NCBI RefSeq assembly: GCF_016026235.1
Contig: NZ_CP065613.1
Reading direction: 5' to 3' (one strand)
From: Escherichia coli
GTDB lineage: Bacteria > Pseudomonadota > Gammaproteobacteria > Enterobacterales > Enterobacteriaceae
DNA length: 64,000 nucleotides
Every line of letters begins with the position of its first letter. Positions within the stretch are counted from its first letter, which is position 1. A program made the position numbers and the translations under genes. Below, piece by piece: positions 40,952 to 42,097 of the stretch. The notes beneath the pieces are model-generated. The model was not told the DNA's origin and did no database searches. It saw only the letters and a list, made by a program, of their open reading frames with translations.

Positions 40952-41293
40952 TTAACAGAGTTTTTCAGCTCGTTCTATAAACGGTGCCAGACTCATTTTT
41001 TCGCCGGGATTGTTAGGATCATCAATCTGAATCACCGAAATGGGTTGGGCTTTAGTCTTCCCACTGGCAACTTCCTTTTGTGCGATATCGTTTAAAGGAT
41101 ACTGCACGAGGGTACTTGGGTTGATGACATACAAAGCATTACCCGGTCGGCAAGTCAGCATCACCTCTTCGCGATTAAACGCCCATTTGTCTTTACCCAC
41201 TTCAAAACGGCTGACGGTAATCACCTGCGGTGCAGCCAGCGCCGCTGCAGAACTGGTGAGTAACAGAAACGCCAGAATACTTTTTTTCATCAT
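40952..41293 (-). CDS. yebY: periplasmic DUF2511 protein YebY (signal peptide [20 protein letters not shown])
   Basis: C-terminal 113 codons of the 381-aa track ORF recognised as YebY. Confidence 0.75.
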
Positions 41294-42097
41294 TTTCGTA
41301 ATCCACACAAACCAGGGTGCCGCACGATCTTCATCCTGCCTCATGCGCGGTACAAGAACATAACGATTAGCCAGCGCAATGACCACCATAATCATCACCA
41401 GGATGGCTTTGAGCAATAAGAGTTGGCCCCAGTAAGTCGTAAGCGTGGGGGGAAATCCGGTAATCAACAATGCATTAAGCACGCCGCTTGCCAGTACGCC
41501 GATCACCGCAAAATGCCCGCACCAGGAAAAACGCATCAGCGCCTGAATAGCCTGGTGCCGCCAACGGCCTTTGATGAGTTGCATACACCAGAGCACCGGC
41601 AGTAATCCCCCAAACCACGCCGCCGCACAAATCAGGTGAATCGCGTGATTAGTCTGATGGATTTTCGCCGTTACCCCTTCATTCAGCGTCGCATGCCCCA
41701 CTCCCGCCAGCAGAATAAATTGCGCGGTAGTGAGCATAAACAGCAAACGTGGCATATTCCGCGGTTGCATAAGGGCGACGATCAACGTTACGAGGGCGAG
41801 AACAATTTGCCATAACCAGACGCCACCAAACTGCGTTTGCAAAACAGCCTGCCAAATGTTTGGCGAAAATACATCTGTCCATCCCGTTCCCATCAACCCG
41901 CCCTGAACGGCGAGCATTGCAGTGGCACTGATCAAACTCCAGACGGCAGCGTGCTGTTGTAAACGCAGAAAACGCTTCGCCAGCAAACGACGAATCGTTA
42001 AGGGGGCCAGCCAGGCACCGTACATTGCGAAGCCAAAAACCAGCATCAGCGAGGTGAAATGGATAAATCGCAGCGCGACCCAGGTAAACGCCAGCAT
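40952..42097 (-). CDS. yebZ: CopD-family inner membrane protein YebZ reading frame, continuous without a stop into yebY (381 codons)
   Basis: Track ORF 40952..42097; first about 268 aa are polytopic CopD-like; no in-frame stop before the YebY signal peptide. Confidence 0.7.

Follow-up and report, generated by a model that had tools for sequence, protein, structure and literature searches.

The closest described system is the AZY operon of E. coli (yobA-yebZ-yebY), in which YebZ acts as a copper importer, the CopC-like YobA enhances uptake, and YebY lowers uptake when co-expressed (PMC11923076). Fusions of YebZ to YebY were already noted in two E. coli by Hadley et al. 2021 (PMC8689200). Periplasmic domains are commonly fused to CopD proteins, either CopC at the N terminus or a YcnI-like or Sco1-like domain at the C terminus.

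The window analysed here, a 64,000-nucleotide stretch of E. coli DNA, contains the same three genes as the AZY operon, in the same order and with the same neighbours (holE upstream, pphA downstream); yebZ and yebY are joined in one reading frame. The paper of Hadley et al. 2021 gives no junction, mechanism or topology. For the window allele the junction is defined, an 81-bp deletion between 12-mers by which the last helix of YebZ (TM8) is replaced with the YebY signal peptide. Multidomain CopD proteins (CopC-CopD proteins such as B. subtilis YcnJ, or those with a C-terminal YcnI-like/DUF1775 or Sco1-like domain) also link a CopD core to an extracytoplasmic copper-related domain. However, those fusions are ancient and conserved and keep the full eight-TM core, whereas the window fusion is a recent clonal deletion that lacks a conserved helix and has DUF2511 as partner. 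Searches with the fusion and with YebY alone gave no protein combining CopD and DUF2511 outside E. coli among their 120 best clusters. Judged from these comparisons, the architecture resembles a known kind but is not conserved across species or lineages. The allele is already present in databases, and the literature already mentions YebZ-YebY fusions. The event is real, but it is an ordinary strain-specific in-frame deletion fusion and no new system.

The operon had been described as Zur-regulated in a first-pass annotation of the window. A scan for a Zur box upstream of yobA gave no match with up to 3 mismatches, while the control znuA/znuCB site was recovered at 60121-60135. Regulation by copper boxes and FnrS is what the AZY papers report, and the Zur assignment is unsupported.

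The fused reading frame and its junction

The fusion is encoded by a single open reading frame of 381 codons plus stop (40952..42097, minus strand), in which YebZ residues 1-268 are joined in frame to the complete 113-residue pre-YebY. This is the frame and junction that the first-pass annotation had read, and its placement of the YebZ ATG 3 nt after the yobA stop was also confirmed. The CopC homologue yobA, gene 1 of the AZY operon (42101..42475, minus strand), is intact as an open reading frame and in comparison with the annotated E. coli genome EC2641. Pfam analysis of the 381-aa product identified CopD (PF05425, E=1.9e-21) at residues 185-268 and DUF2511/YebY (PF10709, E=6.6e-44, profile positions 1-87 of 87 covered) at residues 294-381. 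The YebZ part (41306..42097, minus strand) belongs to the CopD family and is 99.3% identical to the reference CopD over residues 1-269; sequence comparison and the wild-type model assign TM1-TM7 and the cytoplasmic loop 7 to it. Both His135 and His154 are kept, His154 being invariant and His135 at least 90% conserved in the 38 homologues compared.

Mature YebY (DUF2511, 93 aa; 40955..41233, minus strand) is 100% identical to the reference YebY protein, and the fusion ends in ...ERAEKLC as YebY does. In comparison to residues 21-113 of the crystal structure (PDB 7N0J) it has a single substitution, K for N at YebY residue 80. The conserved Cys pair of DUF2511 corresponds to the last two cysteines of the fusion, Cys316 and Cys381, invariant among the homologues compared. 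The intrinsic terminator 3' of yebY, a hairpin with U-run at 40881..40920 (minus strand), is intact and the same as in the reference. It was missed by a simple terminator scan and confirmed by direct folding (dG -19.8 kcal/mol, z -6.6).

In EC2641, copD (yebZ, 290 aa) and yebY (113 aa) are annotated as separate genes, 12 nt apart. The layout that the first-pass annotation had given for K-12, a YebZ of about 290 aa with a separate yebY a few bp downstream, was right. Alignment to EC2641 showed one clean 81-bp gap, with no further change nearby, equal to 22 codons, a stop and a 12-nt spacer; an in-frame loss of about this size and composition was what the first-pass annotation had inferred. The lost bases encode YebZ residues 269-290 (LEWAIGAVVLVIISLLATLEPF, helix TM8) and comprise the TGA stop and the 12-nt spacer. 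An imperfect direct repeat of 12 bases, TGGATGACTAAA and TGGATTACGAAA, is identical at 10 of 12 positions, and its copies start exactly 81 bp apart. The order in the reference is ...TTTGTG TGGATGACTAAA CTCGAA...CCTTTTTGA TGGATTACGAAA ATGATG..., and the window retains the downstream copy only. The junction is this sole remaining copy, TGGATTACGAAA on the coding strand, located by alignment to the references at 41294..41305 (minus strand). The M266 to I change in 'WITK' arises because the surviving copy is the former yebY leader (ATT ACG AAA); the fusion therefore has 265 native YebZ residues, then I-T-K, and then the 113-aa pre-YebY.

These alignments argue strongly for a deletion between the short direct repeats that crossed over inside TGGAT (41301-41305) or ahead of it. 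A spontaneous deletion between 12-bp repeats 81 bp apart, by replication slippage or another homology-assisted route, would remove YebZ TM8, the yebZ stop and the 12-nt spacer in one event. As 81 is divisible by 3, translation would continue in frame from YebZ loop 7 to the signal peptide of YebY. Slipped-misalignment deletions are a known class in E. coli, for example at the classic lacI deletion hotspots. Like these, the present deletion has its end-points in short direct repeats and keeps one copy. The mechanism is no different; the only special points here are a spacing of the repeats that is divisible by three and a deletion that spans two genes. The allele is an example of an in-frame fusion of neighbouring genes through a 12-bp repeat. 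Slippage at a 7-nt homopolymer had been considered as a cause. This run (A7, inside the YebY signal peptide; T7 on the plus strand, 41281-41287) is the same in the references (ATGATGAAAAAAAGT) and plays no part; the cause is the 12-mer direct repeat.

Distribution and ancestral state of the allele

We searched 5,426 complete RefSeq E. coli genomes by megablast with positions 40900-42150. The yebZ-yebY locus was found in 5,425 of them, with at least 80% of the query covered in 5,424. Each of the best 30 genomes listed matched in two pieces spanning 1,332 bp as compared to the 1,251 bp of the query, 81 bp more. The fusion junction, searched with a centred 89-nt query, was covered by none of the 5,426 complete genomes (best coverage 61%).

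The identical 381-aa protein has several E. coli entries in NCBI (EFK2888894.1, EFK6636094.1, EFK6691440.1 and EHD3364815.1) and also occurs in Logan assemblies of separate runs. In the assembly collection, 35 index blocks contain the protein, and it was present on at least 23 contigs. All 23 contigs that were read had the same neighbours, including an IS1 immediately downstream. Short repeats and the A7 run at the junction could in principle have favoured a collapse or slippage during sequencing or assembly. However, the same junction and protein recur in several NCBI assemblies and in assemblies of separate runs, the homopolymer has the reference length, a 12-bp repeat cannot collapse an 81-bp unique segment in an assembly, and no coding indels occur elsewhere in the window. 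We consider an artefact extremely improbable, and the sequencing error that the first-pass annotation had left as an option is excluded by the recurrence on at least 23 independent contigs.

Two carrier contigs differed from the window by 0 and 1 SNP in 7.3 kb when IS1 was left out. An apparently larger divergence between carriers (3 SNPs in 7.9 kb) was discarded, as nearly all of it lay inside the multi-copy IS1. This near-identity points clearly to one recent, near-clonal E. coli lineage and not to a recurrent event. The downstream IS1 (40000..40767, plus strand) lies in the yebY-pphA spacer and is flanked by a 16-bp target duplication at 39984-39999 and 40768-40783; its insertion is an event separate from the deletion and a marker of the same clone.

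The closest complete genome was FDAARGOS_943, which is 100.0% identical over the adjacent 21.8 kb. Its yebZ/yebY haplotype is the same as that of the window bar one SNP, yet the 81 bp are present. The undeleted allele of this strain represents the ancestral state and offers a near-isogenic comparison. General pseudogenisation of the region was also considered and was ruled out: in the roughly 49 kb that align collinearly with EC2641, all remaining indels were intergenic and 1-2 bp long, and the other 50 window genes compared with EC2641 were full length and stop-free.

The fusion and FDAARGOS_943 alleles, which differ by one SNP plus the 81 bp, are a natural reagent for the AZY field. With this pair, a requirement of copper import for TM8 and an action of YebY in the vicinity of YebZ can both be addressed. 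The allele also calls for caution in annotation. In PGAP annotation the 381-aa product is called "copper homeostasis membrane protein CopD", and yebY vanishes from the gene lists of carrier genomes.

Predicted topology, export and function of the product

The AF2 model of wild-type YebZ had eight helices (mean pLDDT 84.8, pTM 0.82). Fifteen Lys/Arg residues are located in loops 1, 3, 5 and 7 as compared to one in loops 2, 4 and 6. His135 and His154, which flank loop 4 and are needed for uptake, have been placed on the periplasmic side (Zhitnitsky, Hadley et al. 2025, PMC11923076). From the charge bias, the side of these histidines and the number of helices we infer that both YebZ termini are in the periplasm, that loop 7 is cytoplasmic and that TM8 runs from the cytoplasm to the periplasm.

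In the fusion the canonical eight-TM core is incomplete. The native TM8 (269-290) is gone and the YebY signal peptide, now internal, stands in its position (41234..41293, minus strand; cleavage motif A-L-A/A-P), as assigned from the start of the chain in PDB 7N0J, hydrophobicity and the model helix 259-288. Loop 7 is followed by MMKK and then by the hydrophobic 15-residue core of the signal peptide. A Sec signal peptide inserts in-to-out, the same direction as TM8. The YebY signal peptide would thus act as a surrogate last helix in the orientation of TM8, and the YebY domain would still reach the periplasm; this may explain how YebY export could survive the deletion. The neat point of the allele is that a conserved last helix has been swapped for a cleavable signal peptide of the same predicted orientation.

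YebY is experimentally periplasmic (PMC8689200), and the crystallised chain (PDB 7N0J) starts at Ala21, directly after A-L-A. Both the signal-peptide sequence and the A-L-A/A-P site are intact in the fusion, but they are internal and not N-terminal. On general principles, signal peptidase I could plausibly cut this internal ALA/AP site after the seven TM helices, which would give a 288-aa YebZ' and normal mature YebY. YebY should therefore still be exported and may be cleaved off. The description of YebY as 'tethered' to the membrane protein needs qualifying, as cleavage at the intact signal-peptidase site may set it free. The window also keeps both yebY ATGs and the leader sequence from TGGAT onward, and the retained ribosome-binding region may permit independent initiation.

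On the Hessa scale, used without position dependence, the signal-peptide core scored -0.92 over 15 residues and +3.5 over 19, as compared to -2.6 and -0.07 for TM8 and +3.7 for the native TM2. The signal-peptide core is shorter and less hydrophobic than TM8; over 19 residues its score is close to that of the native TM2. For modelling of the fusion, an earlier mixed alignment that was misaligned by MAFFT was set aside for pseudo-paired full-length rows, deliberately stripped of TM8 information. In the resulting AF2 model (mean pLDDT 73.6) residues 259-288 formed one helix, with the first YebY strand directly after it.

As the signal-peptide core is weaker than TM8, it is possible that the whole fusion mis-inserts and is degraded, with loss of YebY. 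If yebY were also not translated independently, the clone would effectively be yebZ- yebY-. The shorter and less hydrophobic surrogate helix, the lower model confidence at the C terminus and the operon decay seen in other strains fit such a loss of both functions. However, the YebY signal peptide is a proven export signal, the leader and start codons of yebY have been retained, and the mature YebY sequence is intact, and we regard the double loss as unlikely.

Among 38 non-redundant enterobacterial YebZ sequences, TM8 was one of the most conserved segments (mean conservation 0.88 vs 0.81 overall), and 9 of its 22 positions were invariant, including E270, G274, S282, E288 and P289. With comparable alignments, the pLDDT of residues 201-260 (TM6-TM7) decreased from 82 in the wild type to 63 in the fusion, whereas that of residues 1-130 was unchanged (89 vs 86). 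AF2 confidence is no measure of stability, and this drop is soft evidence. Because TM8 is so highly conserved, the YebZ copper importer is most likely weakened or inactive in the fusion, as judged from sequence conservation and the models.

Other alleles with lesions in the same short interval between the yebZ 3' and yebY 5' ends were also found, each an independent event with a different junction. Several E. coli and Shigella sonnei (WP_052989471.1) carry YebZ alleles of 270 aa that end in ...MTKLE just before Trp271, exactly where TM8 starts; a stop at the Trp271 codon would account for them, and they appear to represent an independent loss of the same helix. In P0196 an in-frame yebZ-yebY junction connects TM8 (...SLLAT) to PQVITV with deletion of the signal peptide, and yebZ is also split near residue 222. 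In P0026 YebZ1-169 is joined to YebY43-113, which destroys both domains, and the adjoining yobB is split. P0196 and P0026 were rejected as support for a selected fusion, as both are in decayed contexts. Among these yebZ lesions, the window allele alone has retained both TM1-7 and a complete pre-YebY with its cleavage site. Single knockouts of AZY genes give weak phenotypes (PMC11923076). Based on these phenotypes, the 270-aa alleles and the two decayed fusion alleles, the AZY operon appears to be dispensable in some lineages.

A functional fusion under selection would have the signal peptide fully replace TM8, with YebY either left uncleaved and tethered to the periplasmic face or released by cleavage in a fixed 1:1 ratio. 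In its favour, the frame is kept, neither domain is damaged and the orientation is the right one; natural CopD proteins with a periplasmic domain at the C terminus are known, and the allele persists in dozens of isolates. However, TM8 is highly conserved with E270, G274, E288 and P289 invariant, the 120 best clusters of each search contained no CopD-YebY protein from outside E. coli, carriers of this recent clone are separated by 0-1 SNP, one third of random deletions stay in frame anyway, and other yebZ-disrupting alleles exist. We find selection for such a fusion improbable. We are equally doubtful that the fusion tunes copper import, for example by constitutive damping, even though copper uptake falls on YebY co-expression (PMC11923076). 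The same low degree of belief applies to a natural 'helix swap', in which the cleavable Sec signal peptide functionally replaces the conserved last CopD helix and alters copper import and mar-dependent antibiotic tolerance. If this were true, YebY would be permanently tethered or, after signal-peptidase cleavage, produced in an obligate 1:1 ratio. The clone is too young for its sequence to reveal selection on the allele.

We consider it probable that the explanation as a whole is a recent, clonal, repeat-mediated deletion, after which YebY is exported via a surrogate helix and YebZ is probably impaired. As a reading of the allele, we favour a neutral-to-mildly deleterious lesion in an accessory operon that the cell can do without over an evolved fusion protein.

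Neighbouring insertions and strain differences

The target duplication of the IS1 downstream of yebY (CATTAATGCAGGCTTA, window 39984-40783; IS1 at 40000-40767) is 16 bp long, and pphA is intact. Target duplications of IS1 are usually quoted as roughly 9 bp, shorter than the one observed here. At the position of this IS1, a lambdoid prophage with integrase and excisionase was found just downstream of yebY in FDAARGOS_943 and in the two other fusion-allele strains (prophage-bearing loci L006 7673-13332, L007 3849-5172 and L008 4264-5184). This spacer between yebY and pphA looks like a hotspot for insertions.

A second IS1 copy, 99.7% identical to the first, is located at 9063-9826 between pabB/yoaH and yoaB. 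About 487 bp of EC2641 are missing there, including the yoaC pseudogene of that strain, and the site looks like an IS1-associated deletion. In comparison to EC2641 the window also carries a 1.5-kb insertion between yoaE and pdeD (15316-16832) with a 378-aa IS110-family transposase (Pfam DEDD_Tnp_IS110 and Transposase_20). The first approximately 585 bases of the window (1-585) did not align with EC2641 beyond yeaX. EC2641 carries a truncated SRPBCC-family pseudogene at that place, pointing to a difference between strains in the yeaW/yeaV region. Finally, RlmA (rlmA, 23059-23865) differed from that of EC2641 at 6 of 269 residues (97.8% identity), with neighbours mostly 99.5-100% identical, and this divergence may be a small recombination patch.
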